Shown here: piece after piece, positions 1 through 64,000 of the stretch
Numbering within the stretch: the stretch's first letter is position 1
How the letters are laid out: each line of letters opens with the position of its first letter
Assembly: GCA_965178125.1 (NCBI GenBank)
Contig: OZ237752.1
Location: forward strand, 868,001 to 932,000
Length of the DNA stretch: 64,000 nt
Direction of reading: 5' to 3'
DNA from: Bilabrum cf. latius
Taxonomy: Eukaryota
The notes under the pieces: model-generated
What the model was told of the DNA's origin: nothing
What the model saw: only the letters and a program-made list of their open reading frames with translations
Database searches by the model: none
Translations under genes and position numbers: made by a program

Positions 1-916
1 GAAGCACGTCGCGAGCGGGCACAGCTTCACATTCTCCCCGGTGGGGGCCTTGAGACAATGGCACAGCCGCCAGGTACAGACATTATAGACGGATGACAAC
101 CCCGTATCGGCCACGAACTGTGACCCGTCCTTCGTGTCTGAGTACTCGGGGGAGCTTGCTTGCAGCTCCATGGCAGGCAGCTCATCTGCAGCCGAATCTG
201 GGGACGCTGGCACCACATACTCATGGCCATCACTAGCCAGTGATGTCAGCATCAGATTGAACAGGTCACCTGAAGCCTCGCTGCCGATGGACCGCCTCCG
301 CCGGCAGGGTGACATTCTGTTCGCTTGCGAAGTGGTGCTCTTCGACGACGACCTGCACGACATGGGCATCAGCAAGGCCGTGGTGAAGCTTCGAGTCATG
401 AAAGACTGTTTCCTGCTCCTCTACAGGCATTTCTATTACAATGCGCTAGACGCAACCGACAAGCTCCGCCTTCGCGATGTGCGCCTGGCCGCCTGCCTTG
501 ACGAAGCACCGAGCAAGTGCTCGTGCGAGTTGGTCGCAGATATCTAGCTCCGCACAGGTGCAGCCATCGAGGTAGCCAGAAAGACTCCCGGACTCGGAGC
601 CGGAGCCGCTCCCTGGGCCTCGGCCTCGGCTAGGCCTGTGCCTGGCGGCGCTTCGGCTGCTGCGACCGGCGGCAGCAGGGCAGGCGCCCCTGCAGCGGCG
701 GTCGCCGGCAGCGCTGTGTCTCGGCCTGCGACTAGTGGCGCGGACTCGGGGGCGGGCGTGGCTGAATCAGCGCTGCGGCGCGTTGCACCAGCCCCTGATT
801 CGATTAGCGCCCCAGGGTCGGATGCTGCGAGGGCCCTGCGGGTGACCGAGCAAGAGGTGTTTGCTGCCCTCGAGCCGACCGAGCACATTGTGGCTGCACT
901 TCCACTGAAATCGTGA
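1..916 (+). CDS. TIP41: TIP41/TIPRL-like PP2A regulator, 5'-truncated by the window edge; in-frame TAG at 86-88 and 545-547 read as Gln
   Basis: Frame from nt 2 gives H..SGHSFTFSPVGALRQW...DPSFVSEYSGEL and ILFACEVVLFDDDLHDMGISKAVVKLRVMKDCFLLLYRHF...LRLRDVR, which matches the TIP41 core (ILFYDEVVLFEDELADNG..LSVKIRVM). ORFs 134..547 and 638..916 share a frame and end at TGA 914-916. Confidence 0.85.
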
Positions 917-1095
917 TTGCGTTGCTGCAGCAAGACCGTTGAACAGATAGATCTATTCGAATCTACACCGTGGGCATTTGTTCTCATTCTCATTTCATCG
1001 AGAACGAGGTTAAATGACCGCACAGTTTATTCGTTTCGACGTATTCACAGTTCAACGCAGGCTGTCTCACGCAGCTATAGTATTTTGACTCCGAT

Positions 1096-2490
1096 ATGAG
1101 CGGCATTTGGACCAAAGAGACAGTAGCAGAGAGAATCGGAGCGAATGCATCGGATGCCTTGCTGCTACCGCCAAAGGGAATGGGGACCACGCACGAGCAC
1201 AGCTCCATTGTTGAGGATGCGAATGTTACTCTGTACCATGCTTCTGCATAGGCACTTCGTAGCTGTAAATGGATGGAATCGAATGGGATTGTTGCGATCG
1301 TGAACGCTGCTGGTTTCGAGCTTCGAAAGTTTCCGCGAGAGGCCCTAAAGGCATCCGGTATTCACTTGCACGATATCGACATGGATGACTCTGAGAAGTG
1401 GGTCGGTAGCAACGATGCGGTGGAGTTCCTGGCGGCGGCAGCAGCGCATACGCAGGCAGGGCTGGAGCGAGCGATGTGGCTCGTTCTCGAGGCCTCAAAA
1501 CCGGGCAGCGCCGGGACAAAAGGGCGACCAGCCCATGCGAGCAGTACGATAGAAGATACACCTTACTCTGGGAACGCAGGCCCCTCCGCGGAGCCACCGC
1601 TGCCGAAAGCCGGCGTGCTAGTGAACTGCGCGATGGGCCGCAGCCGCAGCTCCTCGGTCGTCCTCTGGTGGATCCTGACTTACGCACAGCCAGACTGGAC
1701 GCTCCTGGACGCGCTGTGCTTCCTGCGAAGCAGACGCACGTGGGCCTACCCCAGGCTGTGCTTCCTCAAGATTCTGTACCGCCTGTCGCTCGTGCCCGGC
1801 AGGCTCCGCGCCTCGGTCGCTCGCGGCGGGGACCTGGACGAGCTGACAGTGCATCCAGTGGGCCATTCTATGGATGACACGGCGGCATCGGGCCATTCTA
1901 TGGATGACACGGCGGTATCTGGCCATTCTATCGATGACACGGCGGCATCGGGCGGGGCTGCGGCTGCCACGGATACGGTAGCTGTGGTGAAGGCGGGGTA
2001 GGTGGCTGCCGCAAGACCGGTTGCTGCAACCGCCGAGACACAGAGGATAGCAAGTGGCCCAGTCGAGTCGGCTGCTTCAAAGATAGCAGCAGCGTCAGCT
2101 GGGCCTACGATTGAATCAGCTTCGGGAGTTTCCGCTGCTGTAGAGGATGAATCATCCAAGGGAGGGATGGGCAAGGATGCAAGGGAGCTCGATTCCGAGC
2201 TCGATTCCGAGCTCGATTCCGAAGCAGTTGCTCGAGCCTTTGCTCGCTTCTGCGCCTCCATGGTGAACCCGCGGGAGGACGAGCACGCAGGAAAGTCGCT
2301 CCCGGGAGGCGTGGAGGACCTAGAGTGGCTCCATTCTGCGGGCAAGCATTATCTGCACAAGGCGGGCGCCGCCGTGGCGACTCTGATTGCAATCCAGCCT
2401 TTGCTTTCCATCGAGGACGCCAAGGCCCTCCTCACGAAGCACAGGGGGAATGCCGAGCTAGCTGCCAACGAGGCTTTGGCGCTGAGATGA
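1096..2490 (+). CDS. Dual-specificity protein phosphatase with C-terminal UBA/CUE-like segment (~464 aa; TAG at 1249 and 1999 read through)
   Basis: ATG 1096 is in frame with ORFs 1273..2001 and 2002..2490. DSP motifs GIVAIVNAA, DIDMDDS, VLVNCAMGRSRSSSVV and ALCFLRSRR..AYP are present. The tail LSIEDAKALLTKHRGNAELAANEAL is UBA-like. Ends TGA. Confidence 0.8.
1861..1950 (+). repeat. Coding 30-bp tandem repeat x3 (GHSMDDTAAS)
   Basis: ggccattctatggatgacacggcggcatcg-type unit at 1861, 1891 and 1921. Confidence 0.9.
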
Positions 2491-2833: not shown

Positions 2834-3663
2834 ATGAGTGTTCTTCGCGATGCCGAGGAGGCTGCTTCGAAATCTGCCGCTGATGTAGACAGGGTAAGGG
2901 CACCTTGGTACTATTGAGCTCGACCGAGCTCGAGGCCGCTTGCTGCACTTTTACGTTCCAAAGGCATCACATATTTTTTTCGTAGATAATTGGAGAGAAA
3001 GAGGTGGTAAAGAAGAATTATATGCGAGCGAAAGAGAGTTTTCGAACAAATATTGGGTTCGTCCCGGGGACAGAGGCCGGACCGCTCAAGTCCCAGTTTG
3101 ATTAGCTCAAGGGAAGGTACACCGAGCTGAGAGACCAGTTCAAGGCAACTGGCATCGAGGAGAAACAGACACGGGAATCGCTGCTCGCAGGAGCAAACCG
3201 AGCTGGAGCCGCGGACGCCGAGTTCGGTGGCGGGGCCGCTGGGGCCGCCGGGGGCAGCAAGAACATGGCCGGCCTCAGGCGCGCAAAGGACACGGAGATG
3301 TAGAACGAGCGCGACTTAGAGCAAGGCCTCCGTACGATGCGGGAAGCGAACGAGACGCAGCGCGCCACGAACGAAAAGCTGGAGGAGCAGACCACCAAGC
3401 TGCGCGAGGTGGACGACACGCTCGAGAGCATGGACCAGGAGCTCAACAGGGCCAGCGCGCTGCTCTTCGACTTTATCCGGAGGATGTACACGGACAAGAT
3501 CATCATTGCGTTCACGTGCCTCATCTTCCTGGGCATCCTCGGGATCGTCATATACTCGTCGGTGTCCAAGAACGACCCCTTCAACGTCCCGGATGAGGCC
3601 AAGCCGCCGGAGGACGTCGTAAACTCAGCGACAGGGGTTGTAGATGATTCGCAGGGCTCATGA
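2834..3663 (+). CDS. Qb-type SNARE (Vti1/NPSN-like); exons ~2834-2893 and 2986-3663; TAG at 3103 and 3301 read through
   Basis: ATG 2834, donor GTAAGG at 2894, acceptor TTTTTTCGTAG ending 2985. SNARE heptads (ATNEKLEEQTTKLREVDDTLESMDQELNRASALL), RRMYTDKII, then a C-terminal TM helix. Ends TGA. Confidence 0.8.
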
Positions 3664-3961: not shown

Positions 3962-4444
3962 TCAATCTTTTGGCTCAGGAAACACGTTCTCGCGGATTAA
4001 TGTGAGGAGCTCAGGGGGATTCGCACCGCTGAGCTTCCCAATGATAACCTTGTGTTTGATCACTGCAAACGCCGGTTTGCAGCCGTCTTGAGTAGGGAAC
4101 TATTCCTTCTGCACGTCAGAGAGCAAGCTGTCGTCCATGGTCAAGAATTTAACGCGCTTCTCCCACTTCTCAAGCTCCAAGGTTAGCATTTCTAAAGTAG
4201 GCCCCATCACGACGCATGGCCCACACCAATCCTTGTGCAGGTCCAATACTGCTTGGATTAGGCCGGAATAGGGAGAAAGGACGTAAAATCAGCGTGAGAC
4301 GGTAAATCCAAACATGCGCGTCCGGTTCAAGCTCGCCAATCTCTTACCTACCAATATATTATCGCTTTTCTCCACCCATTCGTCAAGATCATCCGCTGAT
4401 GCAACAGGAAACTGGATCTACTGCTTCCCTCTTCGTCTAGCCAT
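3962..4444 (-). CDS. Thioredoxin-like protein of the NME8/TXNDC3 or outer-arm dynein light chain type (127 aa); exons 4444-4348 and 4248-3962; TAG at 4418-4420 and 4100-4102 read through
   Basis: Manual translation: MARRRGKQ(Q)IQFPVASADDLDEWVEKSDNILVVLDLHKDWCGPCVVMGPTL...KE(Q)FPTQDGCKPAFAVIKHKVIIGKLSGANPPELLTLIRENVFPEPKD-TGA. WCGPC active site; GTAAG...CAG intron 4347-4249. Confidence 0.85.
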
Positions 4445-4803
4445 GATACAATAGAGCTGCAATGCTTGTATTGCCGTTGACGATCCGAGTTCATGCCAAA
4501 TGACACGTTATCACTATATTGTTGACGAGCTCCCCGCAAAAGTGACGCTTGGCGAAGCAATCCAAATAAAATCTTTCTTTTATTTCTTTTTATATCAGCC
4601 AGCTGGTTCGAAATCTTGCGTCGCTGTTGCCGTTGCCATTTTGGTAGTTGCACATAATTGGAATTTGGTTGCCTTTCGCAAGAAAACTGGTTGTACCAAG
4701 TGCGTACTGTGTGAGGGGGGCGTACAAAATAAGCTGCCTGTATCCAAATTGCTGACAGGTGGGTCAATTCGGGTCTGTGTTGCAATCGGAGGCGCTACCA
4801 AGG

Positions 4804-7800
4804 ATGGACTTTGAGCAACGTTCCCGGTTTAAAACAAGCCCATCAGGCGATCGTTCAGCGGATGAAATGCCAGACAATGTGAACCATGGCCACCTTTTGA
4901 GCGGAATTAGTGGCCACTCGGCTGCCGCGCCAGCCCGGCCTGTGGAGCGAACCTCCGTGCGGGCTGCTTCATCTTTGATGCAAACACGGCATGGCGTCGG
5001 CATAGCCGTAGGCTCTGTTTTTGATGTCGATGGGGATCGTCGCGCATCACCCTCCCATCCGCGGTTGCCAACAGCGCCGGCTGCATCGGCCCGGGAGGGG
5101 GCGTTGCGAGAAGCTCCGGCAACCGGCCCGCACCTGCCAAGCAGCGCGGGAGCGCAGTTGCACCCAGATGACGCGGAATCTGCCGGCAGATCACCTCACA
5201 CCCAATCGTACGTGCGCGTTTCCGGTTCTCGGGCCGGGGACGCGACCGGTCGCACAGTGCGGGGGCGGCGAGGCCGCGCATGGGGGCCTGGGTCGGACGC
5301 CGGCAGCAGCAGGACCACGACAGCACCTTGCATTGGCAGTGGCAGTGGCAACAGCAGTAGTATTCGGAACGGATTGGGCCCATCGCGGCTCCCTGTCGCT
5401 TCTGCGGGAGATGGGGGGGCCATATCGGATGCAGATGCAGGCAGCACCAGCGGAGGCGGCAGCCCAACGCGGGTGTCAACAGGTCGAAAACGGGCGGGTC
5501 AGCCCGTCCACGCACTTGGAACAGCTGCGCCTGCTGGGGATGGGGAGGGGGGCCAGTCCACCGGCAGGAGTGGCAGCACGCAGCGGTCGGGGCCGGGCCA
5601 GCGCAGCTCTGTCGGTGCTGCGCTGTTGGGAGGTAGAGGTAGAGGTAGAGGTGCCGGGCAGGGGGCTGGCACGGGGCCTGGCACGGGGCCTGGGCCTGGG
5701 CGGGGCCCCTCGGCGTCTCGGAGGAGGCCGGCGGCGAGGGACGGCAGTGTGACGAGTGATAAGTCTCGGGGGTCTGTCGGGCGGCAAGGGGCGCAGGGGC
5801 GGAAGCGGAACGGGAGGCAGGGCAGGGCCAGGGAACAGCGGTCCCAGAGAGGGGCTGCCGCCGGTCAGGGCAGGAGCAGGGCACACGGAGGCGCCAGGGG
5901 CGCGGGCCCGTCCTCCTCCTCCTCGTCATCGCGGCAGAGTAGCGCCCGCGTGCGACTCAAGTGCTACTGCAGGGGTGTCATCAGGGTGGTCACGGTGGGC
6001 TCTTCCTCATCCTTCAGGGGTCTCTTGGGCCGCCTGGCTCAGGACTTCGGTTTGCAGGCGGTCCCACAGCTGAGGTACGAGGACGAGGACGGCGACCTCA
6101 TCGTGCTGTCCTGCCAGAACGACCTCAACGAGATCGTTCACCACTTCGCGGGGGGTACCGCCAAAGTGCACCTTACCCCCAACCCTGAGGAACAGCAGGC
6201 GGTGGCCCACAGCGCCCTGGAATTGCCCACGCCGGGGGCATCGACCAGAGGGGCTTTGGATCCGCTGCCTGCTGCCGGCAGCCAGCAGCAGCAGCAGCAG
6301 CAGTCGGGGGAGGGCAGGTCCGGTCATGCCGCTGCTGCAAACGGGAGCGCCGAATCGAAAGATGCCGCTACCGGAAGTGAAACTGCCTCGCCGCCCCTTG
6401 AGGTGGCGGGCAGTGGTAGAGCGGCGGGCACTGGCACGGTGGCAGCCGGTCTCTTTGTGCCTGGAATCGGCCCGAGGGACGGTGGAAGGGGGGTTGCCAA
6501 CGCAGCGATAGTCGTTGCAACCGCAGCTCCGTCATCGTCGGCCGCTGCCGAAATACCCGGGGGGTCTTCCGTGCATTTTGGAGCCGCGAGCCGCAGACGG
6601 GCCGGTTCACCGGACGTCACCCGGCCCGGTTTCAGCAGGGGATCTATGCTTCGGTCCAGGAATGACAGCAGGAGGAGCGGAAGGGCCGTGCGGACGATTC
6701 GGAGGTGGCAGCGGGGCGAGAAGCTGGGTCAGGGCGCTTTTGGCGAGGTGTACGTGGGGCTGGACAAAGACACGGGCGAGATCTTCGCCGCCAAGCAGAT
6801 CGACGAGGACGAAGTGGGCCCGTCGGAGCTCTCGTCCATGCAGCACGAGATCACCATGCTGCAGAGAATGGACCACGACAACATCGTGAGGTACCTGGGC
6901 ACCCAGAAGGAGGGCTCCACTCTCAGCATCTTCCTTGAGTACGTTCCCGGGGGCTCCATCCGCTAGCTGCTCAACCGCTTCGGGGCGCTAGACGAGGCTG
7001 TCATTCGCGTGTACACGAGGCAGCTGCTGCTGGGGCTCGAGTACCTGCATTCGGCTGGCATCGCGCACAGAGACATCAAGGCTGGGAATCTGCTGGTGAC
7101 GAACGACGGGACGGTCAAAGTCGCCGATTTCGGGGCCTCCAAGCGTATGCAGATGGCATCGATGAAGTCCGCTTCCCTGCTGGCATCGCCGCGCCCGGGA
7201 ACGGCCGGGAAACGCAAGAAGGGCGGTGGCGACGACTCGGAGCGATCTGGGGGGTCCATGCAGCAGGGGCCCATCGGGACAGCGCTCTTCATGGCACCAG
7301 AGGTCATCTAGCAGACGCAGAGCGGGAGGGGCTGGCGGCGGGCGGACGTGTGGTCTGTGGGCTGCACCGTCCTTGAGATGGCCACTGGTAGGCCTCCATG
7401 GTCGGAATACAGCAACCCAGTGACGGCCATGTATCACATTGCGTGCACCGATGCCGTCCCCGAGCCGCCCGAGTCGCTCTCCGCAGAGGGCAAGGACTTT
7501 CTGAGGCAGTGCTTGCAGCGCGACCCAGGCCGGCGCCCCGACGTCACAAAGCTGCTGCTGCACCCGTTCGTGTCGAAGATTCCGGACGCCTCACTGCGAG
7601 CCACATCGGCGACGCTCTTGCATGCATTTCCACAGAGACCGTCCACGGGGCACGGCAGGCCGGCCACGTCCCTCCGGGGCGATTCCAGCTGGCTGGGTGC
7701 CATGTCTCCGGCAATGGGCTCGAGGCTGGCAGGGGCGGACTCCGACGCGTTCGGGCTGGAGCAGTGGGCCCCGGTGCCTCCCGCCGGTCGGCTCGAGTGC

Positions 7801-10800
7801 AGCTCTCCGACGAGCGCGGCCGCGGGAGGAAGGGCCGCATCGAGAGGGGCCAGGGTGCGAGCAGGCAGCACTGGCAGCGGCAACGGCAGGAACACGAAAG
7901 ACGAGAACGAAAGGGGGTTCGACCACGCGGGTGAGCTTCCCTAGATCGTGTCGGGTGGGCCCGACCGTGCCGAGGTGGAGGGCGAGGGCATCGGCCTGGA
8001 GTCGGCGCCTGGTACTGCCTCTGCCTCCGACGCGACAAGCGCCTCCTCGTCGGCCAGGAGGTCCCCGGCAGCGGACTACATGCGCGTGCACGGCTCGCCC
8101 GATTCTTCCGTTCGGACTGTCCTAGCCCCCAGCAGCGCGGATGTGGAGGGTAGCCTCGCTGACAGCGAAGGCAGCGACTCAGCAGGGGGAGAGGGAGACG
8201 GAGCGGGCGCGATGCCGAGCAGTGGTCGGCGCGGGCGAGGTAAGAAGCGGCGCGGCAAGATGCCCTCACTATTCGAATCACTGGGCTTTCCCCTGCCTGA
8301 TGAAGAAGGTGCAGCTGGCCTGTCCTCGTCTGACGCCGGTGCGGCCCGCAAGGACCTGACGGCTGGAGGTTCGGAGGAGCAGAATGAAGACGGGCTGGCG
8401 TGGGCGCCGCCGCTCGATGGACCCACGGACGGGCTGGCGCAGGGCTCCCTGCCCAGCATCGTGGAGGATGACGACGAGAGCGGGGAGGGGCGGCGGGGCA
8501 TGCACCGGTTGGGTGGCGACGGTTCTGATAGCGATGCTGGTGAGGGTGATGGGATTAGCATGGCTTTCGCTGGGAACGGCGCTGTGGCTCGAATAGGCCG
8601 TGGTGACATTAACACAGGTGAGGATTCGTCCGATTTGTCCGCCTCTGGCGAGGCCATCCACCGCGGGATCATTCCTGGGCGTCCTGCCCTGGGGTCCCTG
8701 GGAGGCTCCATGGAGCTCATGTCATCGATGGAGGAGGGAAGCCAGGCGGAAGCGGAAGGGGAGTCGGTGGACGAGAGCGGTACGACCGGGCGCGATGATC
8801 CCCGTGATGACAGGCCCAGCCCGGTCGCCCGTCGAGGCTAGAAGTCTCCCAGGCCCAGAGGAGACGCGGACCGACTGGCAGTGCGCCGAAGGGAGAGGAC
8901 AGGTCCCGCCGACAGGCCCAAGACGACCATGACCCGCGGTGCCAAGTCGGTAGGGAGGGGCCTGCGCGCTGGCTCCAGGGAGCAGTCCCCGAGCGGCGGC
9001 AGGGCGGGGCGGCAGAAGCGCGTCAGAGGTGCCGGCGGCGCTCTACGCAGGCCTGCCGCCAGCAGGCCACGCGCGCTGAGTCCGGCGGCGAGGGAGGCTC
9101 AGCTGCGCAGAGCGGCATCGGCACAGGACCGGACCTCTTCGGGTGGTCGCGTTGCTGGGCTGCGTGCCGGTGGCGTGGGCAGGCAAACTGCCGGGAAGGC
9201 GTTCGCTGGCAGCCCGCCAAAATCCCGCCAGCGGCCAGGGCCCAAGCCAGGGGACGGTGCTAGCGCCGGAACGAAGGGGAGCGGCGGTGGCGGCCGGGGA
9301 AAGGGAAGGGCAGGGTCCCCGCTGGCCACTGCAACGCAAGCGAACGGTAGCAAGACGGTCGGCAGGGTCGCGACGAACGGCAATCGTGGCAAGAAGCAGG
9401 CGACGGCTCGCGCCATCCGTGCGCAGGGGGCGACCACCGGTCGCGGCGACAGGCCGGGGGCAGAAGGGTTCGTCGTGGAAGGGGGTGCAGGAGCGATGCA
9501 TGGGGGAGACGCCTTGGATGAAGAGGAGACTCGGGCTTAGATCACCAGTAGCAGCAGCAGCAGCCATGATAAACCAGGTGGGAAATGGACGAAAGAGCAT
9601 GGCTCAAAGCCGTTGGCTGCTGGTGCGACGGGAGTGCTCCCGGACGGCTCGCCACTCCAGAGGAGAGGTGGGGACGGGGGCCCTGTGGGAAACCCGCCCG
9701 CTGCTTCTCTGTCTCTGCAACCAGACAGTCGTGACGGCAGCAGCATGCTGGATGCATCGGAGTCCAAGCGTGGCGACCGGTCTTCCATGCACCGCTACCA
9801 AGCGCTGTCGCCCCGCAAGAGCCCCATCACCGCGGGCGAGGCCATCACGCCTCCTAGGAAGGAACCTGGCCTGTCCTCCTTTGCTGATTCGCACGCCGGT
9901 GGCAGCGGCAGCCTCCGGCTGCCCAAGCAGGAAGCCAGCCCGTTGCCTGGAAGCCGTCGGCTGGCACCCCTGCCCCTGCGTGACGACCCGCTCGACCGGA
10001 CAGGCGGGAGTCTGGCCATGAGCATCGCCACTGAGCTGTCCGGGGCTGGCGATACCGGTGCAGCTGCGAGCCCAGCCGATGGCGGCCAGGCGGTTGACCC
10101 CTTCGCCCAGGCCGATGCGAACGGACTAGACCGAGCGGGAATCGCGCAGCAGGGCGTCTCTGTCCGCCTAGGGACCGGCATCCTTGGGGGCACTGGCAGG
10201 ACCATCGGCACGGTGCTGTCCGTTGACGATGATCGAGACGCCGACGAGCTCGCCAACGTGACGCCGGGTGGCTCCATCGTGCTTGGCAGGGAGCAGAGCG
10301 GCGGCGGTTCATCCTCCTCCTCCGCGGATGGGCCCGCACTCGAGGTGGCGTCAGACAAGGGCAGTGGGTCAGACGATGAAGATGAGTACGAAGATGATTT
10401 CAGCGACGGGTCTGACAGCGTGCTGTCGTACGGCGCCACTCCCGAGGCATCTGCTGCTCGAGAAATTGCGGCTGGTAGCAGGGGCTCTGCAGGCAGTTTG
10501 CTCGCGCACGAGGAGGAGGAATGGGAATCGCGCTGTAGTGGGCGTGGACTAGAAGGTGCAGAGGATGGTCCAGTCAGCGGCAGGAGCCCTCATCCCGGTG
10601 CTCCACAACACAACGGACGACGGACAGGAGGAGACGAGGGCGCAGTCAACGATGCTAGAAGTCCGCGGCATCGTGTGCAAGAACCATAGGATAGCTGGCT
10701 CCGGTGGGTAAACCACGAGGCCCAGCGCATCGCAGCTGCGGGCTCGGGCAGCCTCGACCACGTGAGCTGCCTGGAGCACGGGCACTCAGCCACGATCACG

Positions 10801-12942: not shown

Positions 12943-13068
12943 TCCGGATCTGATCCGGATCCAATGAATGAATCCTGCAAAGTCAGTGAACACATCATAA
13001 GCTTGTCATAGCAACAAATACAAGACCAAGCTAATACACTACTCCCGAACGAAGCCTAGGGCCCTTGT

Positions 13069-39692: not shown

Positions 39693-39742
<50 letters not shown>

Positions 39743-43442: not shown

Positions 43443-43481
<39 letters not shown>

Positions 43482-45899: not shown

Positions 45900-46278
45900 C
45901 GTGTGCCACATGCGCTGCTGGGAGGCAGACAGTCTCAAGAGGCAAGCGAAAGAATGTAGGTAATGTCCAATGCAAGGTACCCTAGACGAGCCTTGGGTGG
46001 GGTGCGCCTGCATGCGCCAGCCTGGGTGCTGCCGAGGACCGACCCACGGTGCCTATGTCGCAATATTGCCAGAATGATTACGAAATGTATATTGATAGTA
46101 TCAAATGCAAGCCATCAAATGCAGTGTTCGTGCGCCAGGCGCGTACTTGGGTGCCGCTAAAAACGAAACCAATATTTTCTACGGCCCAAACAGCACCGTA
46201 CTAGTCGCGGAATGCGACGCACACTTCCCAGCCGCCTACTGCATCAGCGCAAAGAGATACGACCATCTCACCAGAGAA

Positions 46279-54652: not shown

Positions 54653-56344
54653 TCACGAGGGCTTCAGCGAGCCCCCTTCCCGGCTGGCTGACATGGATGG
54701 GTACAGCCCACCAGCTGCAACCGCCGGGCGGCCGCTCGCTCCGCCAGCCCCAGCGCGGCGCACCGCCCTGTCCATGCCGCTTGAGGCGATATGTGCGGGG
54801 GTCCGGCGCGCGGAGGGGCCCGCCCTCCCGCCGGCCCCGCCGCTCGATGCAGCCGCGCGCAGCATGGCCTCAGCGTCCATCGAGCCTGCGGAACCACCGG
54901 TTGCGTGCGCGGCGACAGGACCCACCCCGGGGGGTGGCGGCGGAGGCGGGAAGGACTGCATTCCCGGGGGTGGGGGCGGTGGGGGATTTCCCCCGGCACT
55001 CCCCCTCGGTGGGGGCGGGGGCAGAGAGGGGGGTGCCGACGGAGCGGACTCTGACCCCAACAACGCCCCGCTCCCACCCCCAGACCCCCCCCGCTGGGCC
55101 CACCCGATTCGGAGCCGCACCCCGTCCACGACCAGCCGCCCGCGGGTGCGGTGCAGCGCCGACTGCGCGTCCTCCGTGGAGGAGTACTCCACAAAGGCCA
55201 TTTTCCGCTCCGAGTTGACCCGCACAGACTCGAGGGCACCGTAGGCCCCCATGGCCCGCCTGACCCCCGCCTCCCCCAGGGGCGGCTCCACCCCCCACAG
55301 GCACAGCGTGGCGGCATCCGCGCCGGCCTTGCCCGCGTCCAGCGCCTTCATCTTGGCGTCCTCCCTCTCCATGAGCCTGTCCGCCGAGCGGTCCGACGTG
55401 CCGAAGAACCTGTCCTTGATGCCCTGCTGCACCCCCTTGTGGTAGTAGTCCTTGTTCTCCCAGTAGTCCGCGGGGATGTCGTGGCTGTAGGGGCACTCCG
55501 CCCCCCGAGTGCATGTCCCCCTCAGGAAAAAGGTGCAGAGCTTGGGCCGGTTGCGCTCGTACCTCGGCTTGCTCCTCTTCAGCCGGAGCAGCTCCTCGTG
55601 CGCAGCGGGGGGGACTGCGCTCGCTGTGAATCCGGCGGCGCCCACGTCGCTGCCCGTTGTGGCCAGCTGCTGCCCGGCAGAGGCGCCGCCGCCTGCGGAA
55701 CCGCCGTTCGTGAGAGCGAGGGGCTGCTGGGCGCCTCCCGACGCGGCGCCGGCCCCGCGGGCGGCCTGGAGGGCGGCCAGCGCGGTCGTCTGCGTCTGAT
55801 TCTCGATTGTTTTGCCCGCCTCCTGGGCGTAGTATAGCATCATCGTGTCGCTCTTCGGCTGCACTGCGCCCGGGGCGAGGCCGCCGCCTGCCTGAACCGA
55901 CGAGCCGGCGGCGCCAGAGTACTTCCGGATCACCGCATCCCTTACTTTCAGAGGGAGACCGTACGTCAGGTCGTACAAGCAGCACTGGCAGCAGTTCTTC
56001 AGCTTCGAGCAGACCTAGCAGATGACCGTTCGCTTCATCCTAGCTTTGCGCCCCGGCTGCCACAGGAACTACGTCGTCACCCTACCGCACACGTTGCATT
56101 CAGCCCCGGCAGGTTTCTTCATCATCCGGGCGTAGGGATTGTCTCCTAGGCAGGTCTCTGCGATTTGATAGGGAAGAAAGGCGGTTCGAGTGGTATGCGG
56201 TGCTTTGGGAACGTTGGAAGGTGCCCGAACTGGATGTAGCAGCAGAAGCGGACGACAAATACCATAAAACTCACCGCACAAACGAGGCATTTCAACCTCT
56301 TCTGCCTTTGCGAGATTCGTATTGCTCGGTAGGCCAACCGCCAT
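54653..56344 (-). CDS. RBM22: Pre-mRNA splicing factor RBM22/Slt11 (N-terminal Zn-binding region, CCCH finger, RRM); exons 56344-56275 and 56157-54653; TAG at 56069 and 56015 read through
   Basis: Spliced translation PRLCETCLGDNPYARM...ECNVCGR..(Q)FLWQPG...KRTVIC(Q)VCSKLKNCCQCCLYDLTYGLP matches RBM22 ([43 protein letters not shown]). Also PRYERNRPKLCTFFLRGTCTRGAECPYSH, QGIKDRFFG and an RRM (AFVEYSS). Ends TGA. Confidence 0.93.
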
Positions 56345-56542
56345 GGTGCTGGGCGGATTCGAAATGACGGGAACTTGATCGATTGTCGCCAACCGGGTTC
56401 GCGGCGAACTTCTTGAAGGTTCGTTCGGTTTCGCCAAGGCCTTGTGCGAGGCGTGCGTGCGCAAGACAGCTTGAACGAGGAATGGTAACTCGCGCGAAGC
56501 CTACAAAAGAAAGAATTCTGTTCTTGAACCGAAGCACCTGGA

Positions 56543-57749
56543 TCAGAGAGCCTCCACCTCTGCCCTCGAGAGCCCCTCGTGCGCCGTCAGCCCCTCGTGG
56601 TTCTGGATCGTGTCGTCCGCGCCCTTGCTCACAAGGTACTCGCCCAGCTCTCTGAACCCGTACGCGAACAAGAAGTGCAGCGCGGTATTCCCCGCGCTGT
56701 TCTGCACGTTGGGGTCCGCTCCTCGCCTCAGCAGCTCCTTGAGGAGCCGCTTGTTGCCGTTCTGGCAGGCCGTGATGACGAGTGTGTTCCCCTTCTCGTC
56801 CCTGTCCCTGTCCATGTCCAGCACGCCCTGGCTCAGCACGTCCCTGAGCTCCTCCATCTTGCCCGCCCGCACGAGAGAGAAGGCAAGCCGCACCGTCTCG
56901 GCCTTCCGGTCGTCCTCCGATTTCTCGCTGGGGTCCACCTGCTGCACCCTCTTCTCGCCCGTCCGAGGGTCCACCACCACCTTCATGCGGTCCGTCTCTC
57001 CCTCCAGGTCACCGACCATGAAGGGGCCGGGGGTCGGGTGCGGGGCCGTGTCCAGCCGCACGCTCACGTCCACGGGGGCCACGAGGCCCACCACGGCCGG
57101 CACGTTGGGCAGGTTCAAATCCCTAGAAAATTGAGCCCCCAGCACGCGAGCCTCGCGGGCCCGAGCGCGCAGCTTCTGCGCGTCTTTGGGCGGCCGCAGC
57201 CTCCTCCACTGCGCCCCCGGGGCGGCGGGCGGGCCTGTCTTGGGCCGCCCATGGTCCCCTGCATCCCCCCCCCAGAGGGCCATGTCATTCCCACCCCCCT
57301 TGCCTTGGTCCTGGTCTTGTTCCCCCGATGGCACCACCCGGCCGCCAACCTCCTCCCATCCTTCGTCGCTTGATCCCGCGCTCCCGATGCTCCCCTGCAT
57401 GCCCATGCCACCGCCCATGCCCATGCCCACGGACCCGCCCATGCCACCCTCCGTCACACGCGCCCCGATGGCGGTGCCACCCATGATGGTCGCCATTTCA
57501 CCCCCGTGACGACCATCAGCACCACCGTGAGATGCACCCATGCCCCCGCTTTCGCCGTGAGTGGGCGCGGGCGGGGGCTGGGGCAGCCCGAGCGCTGCAG
57601 CGAGCTGGGCCAGAAGCTGCGGGTCCTGCTTGATCTGCGCCACCACGTCAGCCGACGTGGCGGGTGGCCCGCCCCCGCCTCCACCTGAGGGAACAAGCGC
57701 CATGGAGTCACCGCTGCCGCTATGCGTGTGTTCCCCCTCGAGAGCACCG

Positions 57750-57790
<41 letters not shown>

Positions 57791-60718
57791 GTGCCCCCTG
57801 CCTCCTTGCCCCCCCTCACCCCCGGCCTCCTGCCCAGAGGGAAGCCCCAGTGCCTGGGCACCCACCCGCGCGACCGCAGCCGTCCGCCTCAGAGCCGCCC
57901 TGCAGAGCCTCTCCTCCGCCCTCTCCTCCATGTCCAGCCGGGCCACCGCCTGGAATCGCGCCGCGGAGTCCGCCCGCAGCTGCGGCTTGCCCTTGCTCCA
58001 CACGCTGGCACCGGTCCGGGACGACACCCAGTACACCGCCCCCGAGGCGGGGTCAATCGCAGGGGCGTACTCCGCGGCCTCCTCTACCAGGTTCCGCAGC
58101 CCGTGCGCGGCGTGCCACTGCTTCACGGGCAGGAACAGCCCCAGCGAGGAGCCCAGCCCGAACCAGTCGCCCCCGTCCGCGCTCCCCACTGCCCACCGCA
58201 TCCAGTCACCGTAGGTCGTGTGTGCCCTGGCCTTGTCCCTGTGCCGCCGCTCTGGGAAGGCTCGCGCCCGCTTCACATCCAGGAACACGCGAAGCCTCAC
58301 ACCGGGAGACAGCAGGCTCCGCATCCGACGGGCCGCGTCCGAGGGGCCATCGCACTGGCCCAGGGGCCGCAGCGGGGGCACGTGGTCCCCCGCCGAGGGG
58401 GCACCGTCCTCCAGCCCGCCGTCCCGCCCCTCCATGGGCAGCCCCAGCGCCTCTCTCGCGTCCTCGTCCAGGAGGCCGGGGACCGTCTCCTCCAGGAGGG
58501 GCCTCAGGGCGGGGGGCATGGTGCGCGCCAAAGAGGCGCAGAAGTAGGGCCACACCGAGGCGAGGAGCAGCTCGGCGGCATCTTGGTCTTCGGGGCGCAC
58601 GGGGGCCGGCGGGGGCGCCTTGGGTCCGTGCCTGCCCGCCTCCCGCATGGCCTCTGTGGCGTCCATGGGAGGCGCCGTCTCGGCCCCGGTGGCCTTGGCC
58701 CAGTCCCGCAAGGACACGGTCCCGTCCCCGTCCCTGTCCAAGAGCCGGAGCAGGTGGCCCAGGTCGAAGGCATCGCGGACGGAGGGGCGCCAGGGGGCGG
58801 AGGAGCCCGACTCGCCGCCGGACCCGGGGTCCAGCCCGCAGGTGAGGGTGGAGACGTCTCTGTCGTCCCAGGCCGTGGCCCGCTGCGGGTGCATCGCACT
58901 GCCGTGCTCGCCCTGTCCCGCCAGCATCCCGGAGCTCCCGCCGATAGACTGGTCCAGGCTCCGCCCGGCAGACTCCCAGGGCGCTGTGGACGGCCGCCCT
59001 CCCACACTAGCACCGGCCTCCCCACCCGCCCCCGAAGCGCCCCCGGCCCCGCGCACCCTCATGGGCGTCAGCCTCCTGGCCCTGTCCAGGGAAACTTCCG
59101 CGTCGTCCACCACTGTGGCCGCCTCCATCATGCTGCGGTGGGCCGCCCCGGGGGCGAGCAGGTCGTGCCGGGCCACCGCGCCAGCCTCGCTGGGCCCGCC
59201 CTCGCCCTCCGATGACCCCGCCTTCCCCTTGCTCGCGGGATCCACGCACTCCCTGCACGCGGTCTCCACAGCCCACCGTCGGAACCCCCTCTCAAAAGCC
59301 CTGTAGATGCACTCCTCCACGGCACCGGACGCGGCCGCCGCCCGCATGGCCGCGCCCTCCCCTTCATCGAGGGGGTCAGCCGCCGCCCCCGCGCCCGCGC
59401 CCCGCAGAGTCGCCAGCGCAACCACCTCGGCAGGGGTGGCCCCCAGCACCGGTGCCGCCCCTGCCACCATGGCATTCGTGCTCATCGCCAGCTCCATCCC
59501 CCGGTCCCTCCGCTTGCTCGCCAGGAAATCATCGTCCCCCTCGTCCTCGTCGCCCTCGGCCACCCCGCCCAGGTGCCCCACCTGCCGCATGGTGGAGGAC
59601 CCCGCCGCCAGCGAGTCCTCCCGGAGTGCGTCCTCCAGCGAGGCACCCTCCGCGGCCGATGCATCCACCTCTGGCCACCCCGACGGTGGGTCCCACGAGC
59701 TCTCCTCCCGCTCGGGCTGGTAGTACCAAACCGCCGTGACGCGAGCACCGGCACCGGCACCGGCTATTCCACCAACGGCACTGCTTCCCGCGGCGGTACC
59801 GTCCTCCAGCAGCAGCTGTTCCCCCTGGTACGTCCTACCGCCCTCTTCCATTTCACCGTCCTCCTCCTCCACGTGCACCCACCTCTCCCACCCCGCGTGC
59901 CTCGCCGTCATCCGGGCCCTCGGGTCTGCACGCATGCTCTCCCATTCCCCCCGGGCCAGACCCAGGGCCACAGACGTCCCCCGGAGCCGTGCCGCGTCCC
60001 GGATGCTCTTGTCTCTCCACTGCCTCGCCAGGTCTGCCCTCTCCCTGGCCCTCGCCTCGGCCTCATCCGCCACCCTCCGTGCATTCGCCGCCTCTGCCTC
60101 CCTCCTCCTCAGCTCCGCCCTCTTCTCCTCCCTCCGTCTCTCCTCCTCGAAATACTCGGACAGGGACGTGGAGTCCACCCGGGCGAGCCGCTCGAAGTCC
60201 AGCCGAGCCGTGAACACCGAGGGCTGCGCGGGGCCGCTGGTCCTGGACTTGTTCTGCAGCAGGTGGATGAACGTGTCCCGCGTGTGCGTGAATCCGGTCC
60301 GCACTGCCACGTCGGAGTGCCACGTGTACCTCCGCTTCCACACGGTGGCCGTGTTGGGCGTGGCCGCGCCCTTGGTCACCCCGAAGGCAGCCGCGGAGAG
60401 CCCGCCCATGGGTCGGGTGGCCAGCTCGGTCCGCTGCATGACCCGGAATCCCAGCCCCGGGGGTGCCTCCACCTCGAACTCGAGCGAGTCCCAGGCCGTC
60501 TGCGGCAGGGAGGCGGCGATCGCGTCCGTGCCCGTGCCTGTGCCTACACCTCCGAGTGCCATCAGGGACCCACCACCACCACTACTGCCTCCGCCGCCGC
60601 CGCCGTCTCGGAACCCGCTGCGGGGCGTCCACACGGCCCGCGAAAGGTCCGTTGAGTTGGACGGCACCGGGGCGATTGGTCTGGGCGGGCCCTTGCTGCC
60701 CACTCCTCTCGACGGCTA

Positions 60719-60749
<31 letters not shown>

Positions 60750-63700
60750 GTGAGGACGTACCAGCGCGGAAGCGGGGCCTGCTCATCCATGGCCGGCCTC
60801 GGGTCGTACCCCCGGCGATGCCCCAGCGCCTCTGCAGGCGCGTCGTACCTGTCTACTGCCCACCCGTTGGCAGCGGTCACCGGCGGGGGCAGCGCCCAGT
60901 CGTTGGCGGTCTCCGGTGCGGGGAGCGCGTGCGGGGGCACTGCTGCCGTGGTGCAGTGGCCGATGACGTGCTCCGTGGAGGCAGGCGGTGCAGCCATCAG
61001 CGCGAATGCGACGGCTCGGAGGGTACCCGCCAGTCCCAGCTCCGATGCGTTGTCTCCCAAAGAGCCGTCCTCCTTTCCCTCTACGTCCTCGGCCTCGTCC
61101 TCCCCTACGAGCTCGATCCCCGCCTTGGCTGCTGCCTCCCTTGCCTCTGCCTCCCCCGACAGGTGCCCGGCGTCCACCACGGGGTCGTCTGCCGCCAGCG
61201 CCAGCAGACACACCTTCTCGCCCCCCGCCGCACCTTGTTCCCTGAGAACCATCGCGGCGGCCTCGAGACGACCCACGACCGTGGCGCCAGGCACCTGCCC
61301 GAGGAGACCGGCTGTACCACTGAGCAGCAGGGAGGCGGGCTCGTAGGGCAGGCCGCACGCGAGGTGAGGTGGCAGCGAGCTGGCCGAAGGGCCGGCCGCC
61401 GCTCGAGCAGGGGACCTGTCCTGGACCCCTTCCGCCCCTTCACCCTCCTTTCCTTCCTCCTCCTCCCGTGCCTGATTTCCGGGACTCGCCCCAGCCACCA
61501 CCACCTCCCCTCCCGGTCCCCGAAGCAGCCTGCCCGCCCCGGGCCCGTGCCTCCACACCGACTGCAGCGGCGCGGGAGGCGTGCCCACCTGGGGCCCGTG
61601 CAGCCCCGGGGGCGGCTCCAGGCTTGTTCCCTGGAGCGCCGTCTCGCCCACGGCGTACGCGGATCGCTCCAGGCGAGCCCAGGTGCCAGGGTCCATGAGA
61701 TTGGGTCCCATGGCCTGCAGCTGGGCCCGGCGGATGTCGCCCTTGCCGAACGCCACGTCAGCGTACGCCAGCGTGAAGGCGCGGCTGCCCGTGCCTCGAC
61801 CCTCGTCGTCGAAGCGCCCCGGCTCCCGCGTGCCCCCGACACCCGGGTGCACCTGGACGCTGGTCCCATCGCCGTCGCTCCACCGCATTGCGTCCTGCCA
61901 GCGCCGCAGGGCGCTGCCACGGGGTGGCAGCGGCACGCTCTCGGCCGCAACCACCAGCCGCACGAGCCGTGCGAGCGCCCGCACGGCCTCCCTGTTCGGC
62001 GGCATGGGCAGGTCCGTGGACGTGCCCCCCAGCGCGCGCGCGTCCGCCCCGTCGAGCCCCACGACAGAGGGGTCCCCCACGCGGCCCGCCACGCCCCTCT
62101 CCCGGTCCAGCCGGGCCCGCCTCTGTGCCCTGGCGGCGGCCAGCCGCACCGCTTCCCTTGGAAACGCCACGCCCACCTCCTGGCTCGCCACCTCTTGTGC
62201 CCCCAGCGCCCACTAGACAGCGTCAAAGGCGCGCAGCTCCGCGCACTCCGCCTCCCGCAAGGAGGAGACCAGCCCCGCAGCGCGGGCCTCCTCCGCGGCC
62301 TCCTCCGCCGTGGCCCGCTCGATACTCGTCAGCTCTGCAGGCAGTCCCGGTGACGAGGCCTCGCCGCCCGGATTGTTCTAGCCTGCCACCGTCTGCCTGG
62401 GGGCAAGCGAGCCGGCCCCGGCCTCCATGGACACGGGCGTGGCATCTGTGCCGCTGAACTCTGTGGCGCCGTCCGTCGCATCTTGCGGCTGCGAGCCGTC
62501 TTCCTCTTCCGCTGCGTGCTCCCGGCCGCCTCCATCTTCCACAGCACCACCATCGCCACCGTCGCCAGCTGCTGCTGACGATGCCAGCCTCGCCGCATTC
62601 TGGGCCGCCTTGCTGACCCCCTCCTGCTCCGGGGGCCCGCCGATGAGCTGCCTCGCCGCCTCGCCCTCCGTCTCCTCTCGAGCAGCCCTCCTCGCCTCCC
62701 GCGCCTCGGCGATTTGTTCTCTGGCGTCCCGGAGGGCACCCTCGGCTGCTTCCCGCTCCGAGGTGCGCCGCTCGGCGTCTGACCGAAGCATGCGCACGAG
62801 CGGGGCCCAGAAGGCCTCCTGGGGAACAGGGCAGCGCATGGTGCACCCCATCCGGGGAACAACGGCCTCCAGGACGACCCCGCGAGCCACCCCGCTGGCT
62901 TCGAGCACCATGCCCCGGCCGGGCCTCGCGTCGTCCTCGTCGTCGTCGTCGTCCTCTTCTTCTTCTTGCTGCTCGGCCCCGTCCGCACCCACCGCCCTGC
63001 CACCGTCAAAGAACGCGACGGTCTGCTCCCCCGGAGTGTCTGCCCCGCCTCCCGCCTACGGTGACGTCGCCCGTCCCGCCTGATTCCCGCTCAATATCGA
63101 CTCCGGGTCCTCAGCCCGCTCCAGCGCGGCCTCCTCGGCCCCCGGCTCGGTGGCGGGCACCACCGCGCTGACCAGCAGCTCCAGCGAGAGCCGGACCTTG
63201 CCCCAGACCGGGTCACCACCTGGAGTGAAATGGCCAGAAGCGCTGCCTCCTCCTCTTCCTCTTCTTCCTCCTTCTTCCCCACCCGCCATCAGCTCATCGT
63301 CCTCGCCCTCCTGCGCCTCCAGCCCGCTCTCCGCATCTGCAGGCACCGAGGGCCCCGCCCCCATCGACAACCAGACCGGCTGCTCTAGCCAGGGCACCTG
63401 CACCGACACGCCGCAGCTGACGGGCTCCCGGAGAGGGGGCGGGGCCCCGTTGAGCAAATCGCTGCCCCGCTGCCGCACCTTGGACAGGTCCGAGTGGCCC
63501 TCCCCGGTTGCAACCGCGCCGTCCAAGGCCCGGGCCAGGGACACGGACTGCACCTGGTGGTGACCCGCGTGCAGGGAGGCCTCGTCCCGCCTGCCCTCCA
63601 GGGCCCGACGGGCCACCACCACCTCGGGGTGCTGCGGGGCCCCCGCCCGATTGGCACCCCCCACGAGCGCCGCGTGACCCCCGTATGGGGTCCGCCTCCA

Positions 63701-64000
63701 CGCCATGGGGGCATCCGCTGGAAGATCGCCCGCCAGCCACACGGCGCGCACGTCGAGCGTGTAGACGCGCCTGGCGGCCCGCTCCCGAGCGGCGGCCCTG
63801 GCGGCTCTGTTCTCCGACGCAATGACGTCAGCGACACCACGGAACAAGGGGTGCTGCTGCGCCTGCACCACCGGCACCACAACGCCTTCTTCCTCCTCCA
63901 ATCTCTGGGCCTCTTCAGCGGCGGCCCGGCCCGCCTCGTACGCACGCTGCCTCGCCACTTCGTCTCGGAAGCGTCGGTACAGGGAGCGAATGGTCCAGTC
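56543..64000 (-). CDS. Giant protein (>2480 aa, 5'-truncated) with WW-like domains, an EF-hand and C-terminal ankyrin repeats; 4 in-frame TAG
   Basis: ORFs 63056.., 62378.., 60716.. and 56543.. are in one frame with TAG at 63056, 62378, 62213, 60716. WW-like VWYYQPEREESSWDPP and IDPASGAVYWVSSRTGASVW. EF-hand DRDGDGTVSLRDW. Ankyrin DEKGNTLVITACQNGN..LLRRGADPNVQNSAGNTALH. Ends TGA. Confidence 0.8.

Follow-up and report, generated by a model that had tools for sequence, protein, structure and literature searches.

UAG as a sense codon, most likely for glutamine, in nuclear genes of a GC-rich flagellate

The 64,000 nucleotides analysed here (the window) are probably best explained as a piece of the nuclear genome of a flagellated eukaryote, rich in GC and poor in introns, whose cytoplasmic translation takes UAG for an amino acid, most probably glutamine, with UGA as the working terminator and UAA not used as a sense codon. 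That UAG is a sense codon in the nuclear genes of the window is strongly supported, because TAG interrupts homology-supported domains without any change of frame and is kept unedited in spliced mRNA contigs. The code looks like a further case of an already known, rare kind. A code with UAG alone as glutamine corresponds to NCBI table 15, which is also the code of Blepharisma. By analogy with known cases, UAG would be decoded by a tRNA with the anticodon CUA, probably derived from the tRNA-Gln with the anticodon CUG, and eRF1 would have lost the recognition of UAG. The only tRNA prediction in the window is a Leu-CAG tRNA from ARAGORN that lacks Rfam confirmation, as Rfam finds no tRNA in the window; eRF1 is not among the genes of the window.

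When the 14 stop-to-stop ORFs on both strands (Table 1) are taken together, their 18,270 codons contain 88 TAGs in frame and neither TAA nor TGA. In the two off-frames of the same stretches, TAG occurs 116 and 103 times, TAA 32 and 44 times, and TGA 237 and 289 times, so that an off-frame TAA or TGA is met about once per 60 codons, whereas the long coding frames stay open over 1,472 to 2,728 codons. An interruption of open frames by TAG only is far beyond chance, and as 88 in-frame TAGs compare with 116 and 103 off-frame ones, there is no selection against TAG in frame. The number of ORFs of at least 1000 amino acids in the window depends on the code in the same sense: there is one with the standard code and one when TAA is taken as sense, but there are nine when TAG is sense; the five that are found when TGA is sense arise because TAA and TAG are scarce where GC is high (58-72% GC in the window). 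The sequence-only reading had estimated about 80 in-frame TAGs in 14 of 15 genes on both strands; at least one of the TAGs (25863) turned out to be intronic, and six precede the first ATG of their ORF, the other 82 of the 88 being located 3' of the first in-frame ATG.

Table 1. Genes, open frames and introns along the window, with their in-frame TAG codons.
Feature	Position	Strand	TAG codons	Extent and ends	Basis
TIP41-like gene	2..913	+	86, 545	5' end cut by window edge; TGA end	Pfam TIP41 E=1.2e-17, residues 14-162
Dual-specificity phosphatase-like gene	1018..2487	+	1078 (before ATG), 1249, 1999	TGA end	Pfam DSPc E=7.5e-9; PDB DUSP13/DUSP10 matches
Sec20-like SNARE gene, C-terminal membrane anchor	2884..3660	+	2983 (before ATG), 3103, 3301	TGA end	Pfam Sec20 E=8.3e-5, below curated cut-off
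Thioredoxin-fold gene	3965..4288	-	4100-4102	TGA end	Pfam Thioredoxin
PB1 + protein kinase (MAP3K-like) + WD40 gene	4756..12939	+	8: 6964, 7309, 7942, 8839, 9538, 10687, 10915, 11899	2728-codon open frame; TGA end	Pfam Pkinase E=2.1e-63, residues 652-939, two TAGs within
Haem-peroxidase fusion: animal-haem-peroxidase + 2 DOMON + cytochrome b5 + FAD-binding	13072..18033	-	codons start 17562, 15312, 13521	upstream exon(s) not found; TGA end	Pfam An_peroxidase E=1.8e-102
1539-codon open frame	19140..23756	-	9	upstream boundary TAA; TGA end	no Pfam match
1917-codon open frame, Ala-Pro repeats, five copies of a ~70-aa module	25764..31514	+	14	TGA end	
Intron	25860-25958	+	25863		GT..AG; joint 25859>25959 in X5, X6, X7; absent from X1
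Membrane-protein-like 1472-codon open frame	31703..36118	-	11	TGA end	no Pfam match
Intron in the 5' part of gene 31703-36118	36003..36145	-		143 nt	GT..AG; joint 36002>36146 in X5, X6, X7; not X1
Second intron	36382-36764			383 nt	GT..AG; joint 36381>36765 in X5, X6, X7; not X1
ZGRF1-like SF1 helicase gene	37268..44101	-	16	2278-codon open frame; TGA end	Pfam AAA_11, AAA_12, ZGRF1-like_N; five TAGs in matches: residues 67, 1419, 1556, 1782, 1870
Gene with three bulb-lectin-like repeats	46096..47994	+	6, one of them the first codon of the ORF	TGA end	Pfam B_lectin E=1.6e-9; PDB monocot lectins
Low-complexity 1774-codon open frame	48722..54043	-	5	TGA end	
RBM22/SLT11 splicing-factor gene	54656..56542	-	codons start 56071, 56017 (both STL11_N domain), 56503 (upstream of ATG)	ATG 56344; TGA end	Pfam STL11_N E=2.1e-23
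Predicted in-frame intron in RBM22	56158..56274	-	none	117 nt; lacks in-frame TAA, TAG and TGA	GTGAGT...GCAG
2485-codon open frame, C-terminal ankyrin repeats	56546..64000	-	4	5' end beyond window; TGA end	Pfam Ank_2/Ank

All TAG coordinates that had been quoted earlier, for the kinase, the peroxidase and RBM22, were found as given, with the contexts GGSIR-X-LLNRFG (6964) and MAPEVI-X-Q (7309) in the kinase, AII-X-SITYNEY (17560-17562, minus strand) in the peroxidase, and VIC-X-VCSKLKN (56015-56017, minus strand) in RBM22. The thioredoxin-fold protein, with its TAG at 4100-4102 (minus strand), is closest to dynein light-chain thioredoxins, its best PDB matches being the LC3BL chains 7k58_P and 7kek_P. 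Also the claim that the frame continues after TAG, and that TAGs lie within conserved domains, agrees with the data: 13 TAGs are inside Pfam domain matches, where their density in the best-stretch matches (13 in 2,484 residues, 0.52%) compares with 0.48% overall, and the PDB alignments cross the TAGs of kinase and peroxidase without gaps.

The fate of these codons in RNA was followed in RNA contigs from the runs X5, X6 and X7, which come from two studies, with the DNA run X1 as control. Three GT..AG introns are skipped in the contigs of X5, X6 and X7 but not in X1, and among the RNA contig pieces listed, 26 of 27 TAGs are present unchanged in spliced RNA, the 27th being the intronic one. In the gene at 25764..31514, 13 of the 14 TAGs are present in RNA contigs, and all 11 TAGs of the gene at 31703..36118 are found in one spliced RNA contig of 5277 nt (X5 record 11, covering 31238-36002). 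The RNA contigs differ from the window at no position over 25959-28591, 28901-30995 and 31238-36002, nor in two further short pieces, and none of the variants listed for the RNA contigs falls on a TAG codon, although contigs drop rare variants and a partial editing of TAG could thus persist. The persistence of TAG in spliced mRNA, which the sequence-only reading had proposed to check, is thereby borne out for all of these 27 codons but the intronic one.

These data bear on the alternative that TAG is still a stop codon and that the in-frame TAGs are spliced out, edited, located in pseudogenes or passed by occasional readthrough. The TAG at 25863 and the six TAGs upstream of a first ATG would fit with this, and there are stop-free in-frame introns, such as the one predicted in RBM22, which corresponds to a 39-column insertion that is absent from 11/11 covering homologues and was recognized by the alignment and the splice-site letters. 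However, the spliced contigs of X5, X6 and X7 retain 26 TAGs without any change of letter, homologues align without gaps across TAGs in the kinase, the peroxidase, the helicase and RBM22, the 14 genes are interrupted by TAG but never by TAA or TGA, and the in-frame density of TAG is close to that off-frame, which indicates no counter-selection. TAG as a stop codon is therefore extremely improbable, and UAG as a sense codon is the reading that is followed below.

All 14 ORFs end in TGA, and in the case of RBM22 this TGA coincides with the end of the protein P0001 of a relative. The ORFs have 26 boundaries in total, a single one of which, upstream, is TAA; the other 25 consist of TGA or lie at the window edge (upstream 11/12 TGA, downstream 14/14 TGA). 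In these genes, codons ending in A are about a quarter as frequent as those ending in G (CAA/CAG 145/561 or 0.26, GAA/GAG 0.31, AAA/AAG 0.24), so that about 23 TAAs would be expected in the 18,270 codons if TAA were sense like TAG, but none is found. It is thus supported that UAA is not a sense codon here, because TAA is absent where about 23 are expected and ORFs are not split at TAA. The earlier claim that UAG is uncoupled from UAA holds in that TAA never occurs in frame, but a TAA terminator was not seen either (0/14 ORFs), in a sample of 14 genes that is too small to distinguish a rare from an unused terminator. Glutamine at both UAA and UAG is the common code of ciliates, hexamitids and ulvophytes, known as NCBI table 6. 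The absence of TAA at gene ends, with TGA at 14/14, would be compatible with such a code if TAA were merely rare in a GC-rich genome; yet the A/G ratios predict about 23 in-frame TAAs, genes are unbroken at TAA and are nearly always bounded by TGA, and the TAA-sense control lengthens no ORF. This makes a joint reassignment of both codons very improbable, and a table-6-like code is ruled against by the 88 TAGs versus no TAA in frame.

As to the encoded residue, glutamine is most likely the meaning of UAG, judged from a small sample of alignment columns in which glutamate is the main alternative. The TAG of the peroxidase aligns to Gln in 5/5 solved homologues among the PDB matches listed. In the closest relative, which is 87% identical in 1,854 aligned residues, eight TAG sites of the window are occupied by Q, Q, Q, E, H, S, G and A, and helicase comparisons with relatives of about 50% identity show Q in 2/5 cases. 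Two poly-Q runs contain TAGs: residues 227 and 229 in the helicase, and residue 1095 in the gene at 56546..64000. In one of these more distant relatives, the end of the ORF P0032 falls immediately in front of a Gln that is invariant in 145/145 helicase homologues, and its gene goes on in P0033, which shares the contig of 4877 nt. The stop of P0032 is known from the end of the ORF, not from the letters of the codon, and a phase-2 intron at this place would mimic the result. When BLOSUM log-odds were summed over 20 pairwise observations in 9 columns, with a substitution-matrix model that is crude, Q reached 14.1 nats, E 7.4 and K 2.3, and all others stayed below 1 (R 0.6, S -0.8), with Leu outside the ten best residues and hence below -6.7. 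Glutamine as the most likely meaning, which had been proposed from the sequence, is thus retained, but not all of the four columns that had been given as examples carry it: the peroxidase column does, whereas those of the kinase (D/A and S/D) and of RBM22 (residue 158, with nine V, one L and one A) are variable and do not favour Gln, and the thioredoxin column is K (7k58_P, 7kek_P). Most TAG columns are variable and uninformative on the residue, like those of the helicase family with S/P/T/A, V/I/A and E/S/A/D over 142, 45 and 99 sequences. Between the window and the closest relative, Q is kept at 3/8 TAG sites versus 83% at ordinary Q sites, which suggests a rapid turnover of TAG sites and is a reason why the matrix model behind the log-odds is crude.

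Glutamate as the meaning of UAG, as reported for an uncultured oligohymenophorean ciliate and for UAR in Blastocrithidia, is unlikely but the main alternative. In the closest relative, E is almost as common as Q, with E at 1/8 TAG sites of the window, and G and A at two others, each one step from GAG; of its own three ORF ends, which are probably TAGs, two fall on GAG of the window and one on CAG; the stretch KE-X-X-EE-X-E of the window aligns to poly-E in this relative; D is present in kinase columns, and E is the commonest residue (22/99) in one helicase column. On the other hand, the peroxidase TAG is opposite to Q throughout the homologues listed, Q is found at 3/8 sites in the closest relative and at 2/5 in the intermediate ones, P0032 ends on an invariant Gln, and Glu is 6.7 nats below Gln. 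As ordinary E sites change to Q in 0/93 cases between the window and its closest relative, four alignments of a Glu codon to Q would be odd. Still less probable is another residue (Leu, Ser, Lys or Tyr) or an ambiguous decoding by more than one tRNA. This could be argued from hydrophobic columns at RBM22 residue 158, in UPF1 at helicase residue 1870 and, by eye, in repeats (one TAG of a lectin repeat aligns to V/V, and one in an internal repeat of the gene at 25764..31514 to I/I/V), from S being aligned in two comparisons, and from the low conservation of TAG sites, but none of the eight sites in the closest relative has L, K, Y or W, the log-odds of K, R, S and L are far below that of Q, and the conserved peroxidase and helicase columns are Q. 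Leucine, as in the rhizarian exLh, was rejected as a candidate with L at 0/8 relative sites and outside the ten best residues, some hydrophobic columns notwithstanding. Glutamine is thus kept as the preferred meaning.

In-frame use of TAG also appears in at least two relatives that are known from other assemblies alone, so it seems to characterize a whole lineage and not a single strain. The proteins of these relatives are present in public collections as fragments, such as P0030 and P0031, which match the gene at 31703..36118. Gene callers that use the standard or the bacterial code cut such genes into pieces, so the right table is needed both to annotate this lineage and to bin its sequences from metagenomes. 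The best named matches of the window are stramenopiles, namely Cafeteria and diatoms, and no report of a UAG-sense code in stramenopiles or bicosoecids was found in the literature search. It is conceivable, though we put it forward only tentatively, that this is an independent and undescribed reassignment of UAG in a lineage of GC-rich heterotrophic flagellates that are neither ciliates nor metamonads nor rhizarians and may be stramenopiles near the bicosoecids, that it is common to at least three divergent taxa known from assemblies alone, that UGA is the sole working terminator with UAA essentially unused, and that fast-turnover TAGs arise from both CAG and GAG, with a decoding that is perhaps not purely Gln. 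Each new case of UAG without UAA tests the mechanistic coupling of both codons via eRF1 and wobble decoding. A GC-rich case outside the ciliates would be one in which all genes apparently terminate at TGA, with TAA neither used as sense nor met as a stop. It would be a further, independent observation on the way in which GC pressure and the scarcity of stop codons make reassignment possible, and as an apparent clade rather than a single species is concerned, one could trace in which order tRNA and eRF1 changed.

Nuclear reassignments of UAG without UAA are described from no more than a handful of lineages (PMC11687900). In the account given of the fornicate Iotanema spirale, UAG encodes Gln and UAA is kept as the primary terminator (PMC5304391). 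The window resembles this system in that a non-ciliate flagellate has reassigned UAG alone, likely to Gln, with UAA not being sense, but it differs by its TGA at 14/14 gene ends without any TAA terminator seen, by its GC-richness and by best named matches among stramenopiles, not metamonads. Among ciliates, UAG only is assigned to Gln in two phyllopharyngean lineages and in Protocruzia tuzeti, as far as the list in PMC11687900 goes; the codon, probably its meaning, and the split from UAA are the same, but unlike in ciliates, the window belongs to a contig of more than 64 kb, is GC-rich, has genes of 1,500 to 2,700 codons, and has its nearest named homologues in Cafeteria and diatoms. UAG is split from UAA also where other residues are listed, with Leu in the rhizarian exLh and one phyllopharyngean lineage, Ser in Scotinosphaera, and, in the ciliate PL0344, UAG as Glu and UAA as Lys (PMC5304391, PMC11687900). 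The window shares this split with exLh, Scotinosphaera and PL0344, but its Leu and Ser scores are far below that of Gln, with Glu as the main alternative. The codes with Gln at UAR, as listed for ulvophytes, Hexamita, Streblomastix and Amoeboaphelidium (PMC11687900), likewise turn a stop codon into Gln and leave UGA as terminator, but they include UAA as a sense codon, which the window does not.

In the 14 open reading frames, which were delimited on the two strands from one stop to the next, counting TAA and TGA alone as stops, the coding frame (18,270 codons) contains 88 TAG, no TAA and no TGA codons, and 82 of the 88 TAGs lie downstream of the first in-frame ATG. The same stretches, read in the two other frames, contain 116 and 103 TAG, 32 and 44 TAA, and 237 and 289 TGA codons; TAG is thus about as frequent in frame as off frame, whereas TAA and TGA together occur about once per 60 codons off frame and are absent from coding frames of up to 2,728 codons. 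The window, whose GC content is 58-72% (4-kb windows), yields a single ORF of 1000 aa or more with the standard code and nine with TAG as sense, compared to one in the TAA-sense control and five in the TGA-sense control, the latter because TAA and TAG are rare in GC-rich DNA. Also the best-matching Pfam stretches (2,484 residues) contain 13 TAGs, or 0.52%, which equals the overall density. The kinase and the peroxidase align without gaps to solved structures across TAGs, and the multiple alignment of the zinc-binding N-domain of RBM22 has no gaps across both of its TAGs. The nucleotide 3' of TAG (G 32, C 22, A 19, T 15) gives no clear context signal.

The TAGs are also found in spliced RNA. 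Seven sequencing runs from three studies match the window, all of them without an RNA label on record, and four were compared over 25700-44200, namely X1 and, from the two other studies, X5, X6 and X7. The X1 contigs behave as genomic DNA and retain three introns that are skipped in the X5-X7 contigs, which therefore stem from spliced RNA. These RNA contigs show no difference from the window over 25959-28591, 28901-30995, 31238-36002 and two short helicase pieces, in which there are 5, 8, 11 and 2 TAGs (26 together), with thin RNA-contig cover across parts of the helicase gene that include the TAGs at 37369-37381, 38758 and 41959-41971. No variant position is listed at a TAG codon in the run contigs over 25700-44200. 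The sequence-only reading had expected TAGs to stay in spliced mRNA, and this is the case for 26 of the 27 TAGs examined, but the TAG at 25863 lies inside the first intron of the Ala-Pro repeat gene and is therefore non-coding. Editing or splicing accounts for this one TAG of the 27, and a minor edited fraction is compatible with the contigs. Introns of the window genes are few and short; a further, putative one in RBM22 corresponds to a 39-column insertion that is missing from all 11 homologues covering the region. The same reading had regarded UAG as a sense codon on the basis of about 80 in-frame TAGs; the positions that it quoted are all correct, and the codon counts in the 14 ORFs, the gap-free domain alignments and the TAGs kept in spliced contigs bear it out.

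Termination appears to be left to TGA, which ends all 14 ORFs, while TAA ends none. In RBM22, a protein fragment of a close relative (P0001) shares its end point with the window protein, other homologues have their ends close by, and judged by these alignments the TGA is the true gene end. In the 14 ORFs, codons ending in A occur at a quarter to a third of the frequency of the corresponding codons in G (CAA/CAG 145/561, GAA/GAG 240/768, AAA/AAG 86/356), and by this ratio about 23 in-frame TAAs are to be expected beside the 88 TAGs, but there is none in the 18,270 codons. ORF boundaries are TGA in 11 of 12 cases upstream and in 14 of 14 downstream, and genes are not split at TAA. TAA is not used as a sense codon, in agreement with the earlier claim that UAG is reassigned separately from UAA, and it may be nearly unused here, neither sense nor a common stop.

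Alignments make it quite probable that UAG stands for Gln, and this residue assignment is the weak point of the case. Most TAGs are at positions that vary among homologues. The kinase columns are D/A and S/D and the two RBM22 columns are V (nine times), L and A, and R/K/H, and the TAGs of these two genes, which had been among the examples given for UAG as a sense codon, do not favour Gln. The thioredoxin column is K, and the three helicase columns (150 representatives) are S/P/T/A..., V/I/A... and E/S/A/D.... Distant homologues of helicase, kinase, thioredoxin, lectin, TIP41 and phosphatase do not indicate the residue, the columns being variable or the TAG unaligned, and the ZGRF1 N-domain has no PDB matches. 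The peroxidase TAG, for which a conserved Gln had been claimed rightly, faces Gln in all five homologues among the alignments listed (a bacterial-type lactoperoxidase entry, Dictyostelium peroxinectin A, two DUOX1 entries and eosinophil peroxidase). Over the informative alignments, summed BLOSUM log-odds, in nats, are 14.1 for Gln, 7.4 for Glu, 2.3 for Lys, 0.6 for Arg and -0.8 for Ser, with Leu outside the ten best residues, and it is very improbable that UAG encodes any residue other than Gln or Glu. The TAG sites seem evolutionarily young and derived from both CAG and GAG, and for that reason the substitution model overstates the odds.

The close relative, known only from a Logan assembly (fragments P0001, P0014, P0015, P0030 and P0031; 87% identity to the window proteins over 1,854 aligned residues), gives Glu some weight. 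Opposite eight TAGs of the window, its residues are Q, Q, Q, E, H, S, G and A, and three Gln in eight, compared to 83% conservation at ordinary Gln sites, speaks against a simple Gln assignment. Three ORF ends of the relative face the window codons CAG, GAG and GAG, all of them one step from TAG (about 15% of all codons are), and one gene is represented by both P0030 and P0031, with four codons between them. As these ends fall on window sense codons, the relative too has in-frame stops, at other sites (P0014, P0015, P0030 and P0031 against 31703-44101), and TAG positions turn over quickly between two species with 87% protein identity. If the ORF ends are counted in, Glu is nearly as frequent as Gln, and a KE-X-X-EE-X-E stretch lies opposite poly-E in the relative. 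What separates Gln from Glu are the conserved columns, that of the peroxidase TAG and one in the helicase, where the ORF P0032 of a relative at about 50% identity breaks off directly in front of the Gln in the GDxxQLPP motif (Q in 145 of 145 homologues). P0032 is the sole protein among 146 aligned with a C-terminus inside the alignment, and its 4877-nt metagenome contig also bears its continuation, P0033; a phase-2 intron instead of an in-frame stop is possible at this end. Relatives at about 50% identity have Gln in two of five helicase comparisons and otherwise S, N and R. Reading UAG as Glu is thus unlikely, and Gln is preferred.

Like in the described cases, UAG would be expected to be decoded by a tRNA with the anticodon CUA, and eRF1 would be expected to have lost UAG recognition. 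In the window, ARAGORN calls a single tRNA, tRNA-Leu(CAG), and Rfam at the gathering threshold gives no match, so that this call is without Rfam support and no rRNA is present. The call adjoins a tandem repeat in the repetitive region 44352-45447, and it may belong to a satellite or SINE-like array as its tRNA-like head.

Pfam matches mark 10 of the 14 ORFs as eukaryotic genes, and the other four, all long, have none. The Pfam match of the peroxidase begins at position 141 of the profile, and the start of the ORF resembles an intron, which means that an upstream exon is probably missing. In the Ala-Pro repeat blocks, the depth of contigs from all runs goes from hundreds up to thousands, and variants and false joints are numerous there; the number of repeat copies in the assembly is probably not reliable. 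The Ala-Pro repeat gene and the membrane-protein-like gene are convergent, with ends 185 bases apart, and as an RNA contig of the latter reaches 31238, the 3' UTR of that gene extends into the end of the former.

Genes, introns and repeats of the window (window-relative positions)
Feature	Position	Strand	Remarks
TIP41			Pfam
Dual-specificity phosphatase			Pfam
Sec20-like SNARE			Pfam, score under Pfam cut-off
Bulb-lectin repeat protein			Pfam
Ankyrin protein			Pfam
Thioredoxin	3965-4288	-	Pfam; nearest dynein light chains
PB1-kinase-WD40 protein	4756-12939	+	Pfam
Animal-haem-peroxidase/DOMON/cytochrome-b5/FAD fusion	13072-18033	-	Pfam; single open frame, unusual fusion: animal haem peroxidase, two DOMON, membrane segment, cytochrome b5, FAD-binding oxidoreductase domain
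Ala-Pro repeat gene	25764-31514	+	
Intron	25860-25958	+	GT..AG
Ala-Pro repeat blocks	28400-29100		long, GCN-CCN, within gene 25764-31514
Module of ~70 aa	29600-31400	+	~5 diverged copies (by eye, translation); basic stretch, short beta-like segment, amphipathic helix; no Pfam match
3' UTR of gene 31703-36118, overlapping the end of gene 25764-31514	31238-31702		
Membrane-protein-like gene	31703-36118	-	
Intron	36003-36145	-	edges CT..AC, GT..AG on minus strand
Intron	36382-36764	-	edges CT..AC, GT..AG on minus strand
ZGRF1-like SF1 helicase	37268-44101	-	Pfam
tRNA-Leu(CAG) call	44352-44435		ARAGORN
143-bp tandem repeat	44422-45106		4.8 copies, 99% matches
169-bp repeat	45077-45447		2.2 copies
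Hexanucleotide microsatellite	45770-45899		perfect, (GCAGGG) x 21.7
RBM22/SLT11	54656-56542	-	Pfam
Putative RBM22 intron	56158-56274	-	in frame, 117 nt, GTGAGT..GCAG

The best named relatives of RBM22 are diatoms (Fistulifera cluster, 33-36% identity; Atlas cluster mostly Bacillariophyta), and the best named helicase match is from Cafeteria roenbergensis, a GC-rich bicosoecid, with others scattered over Mastigella, Nonionella and Nannochloris. A thioredoxin of the dynein-light-chain type is in keeping with a flagellated cell. Such cluster look-ups give a mixed picture that is insufficient for placement, and a stramenopile affinity of the organism is suggested by them as a lead. A literature search of limited range found no report of UAG reassignment in stramenopiles or bicosoecids, and it is plausible that the lineage is new for UAG reassignment.

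The case joins the known but rare class of UAG-only nuclear reassignments. According to passages of PMC5304391, UAG alone has become Gln in Iotanema spirale, and passages there and in PMC11687900 describe UAG alone as Leu in a rhizarian and as Ser in Scotinosphaera, and UAG as Glu with UAA as Lys in the ciliate PL0344. Passages of PMC11687900 further report UAG alone as Leu once and as Gln twice in phyllopharyngean ciliates, and as Gln in Protocruzia. As far as these passages go, Iotanema and the ciliates with UAG as Gln have the codes nearest to that of the window, which differs from them in the GC-rich genome, the apparently TGA-only termination and the probable lineage.
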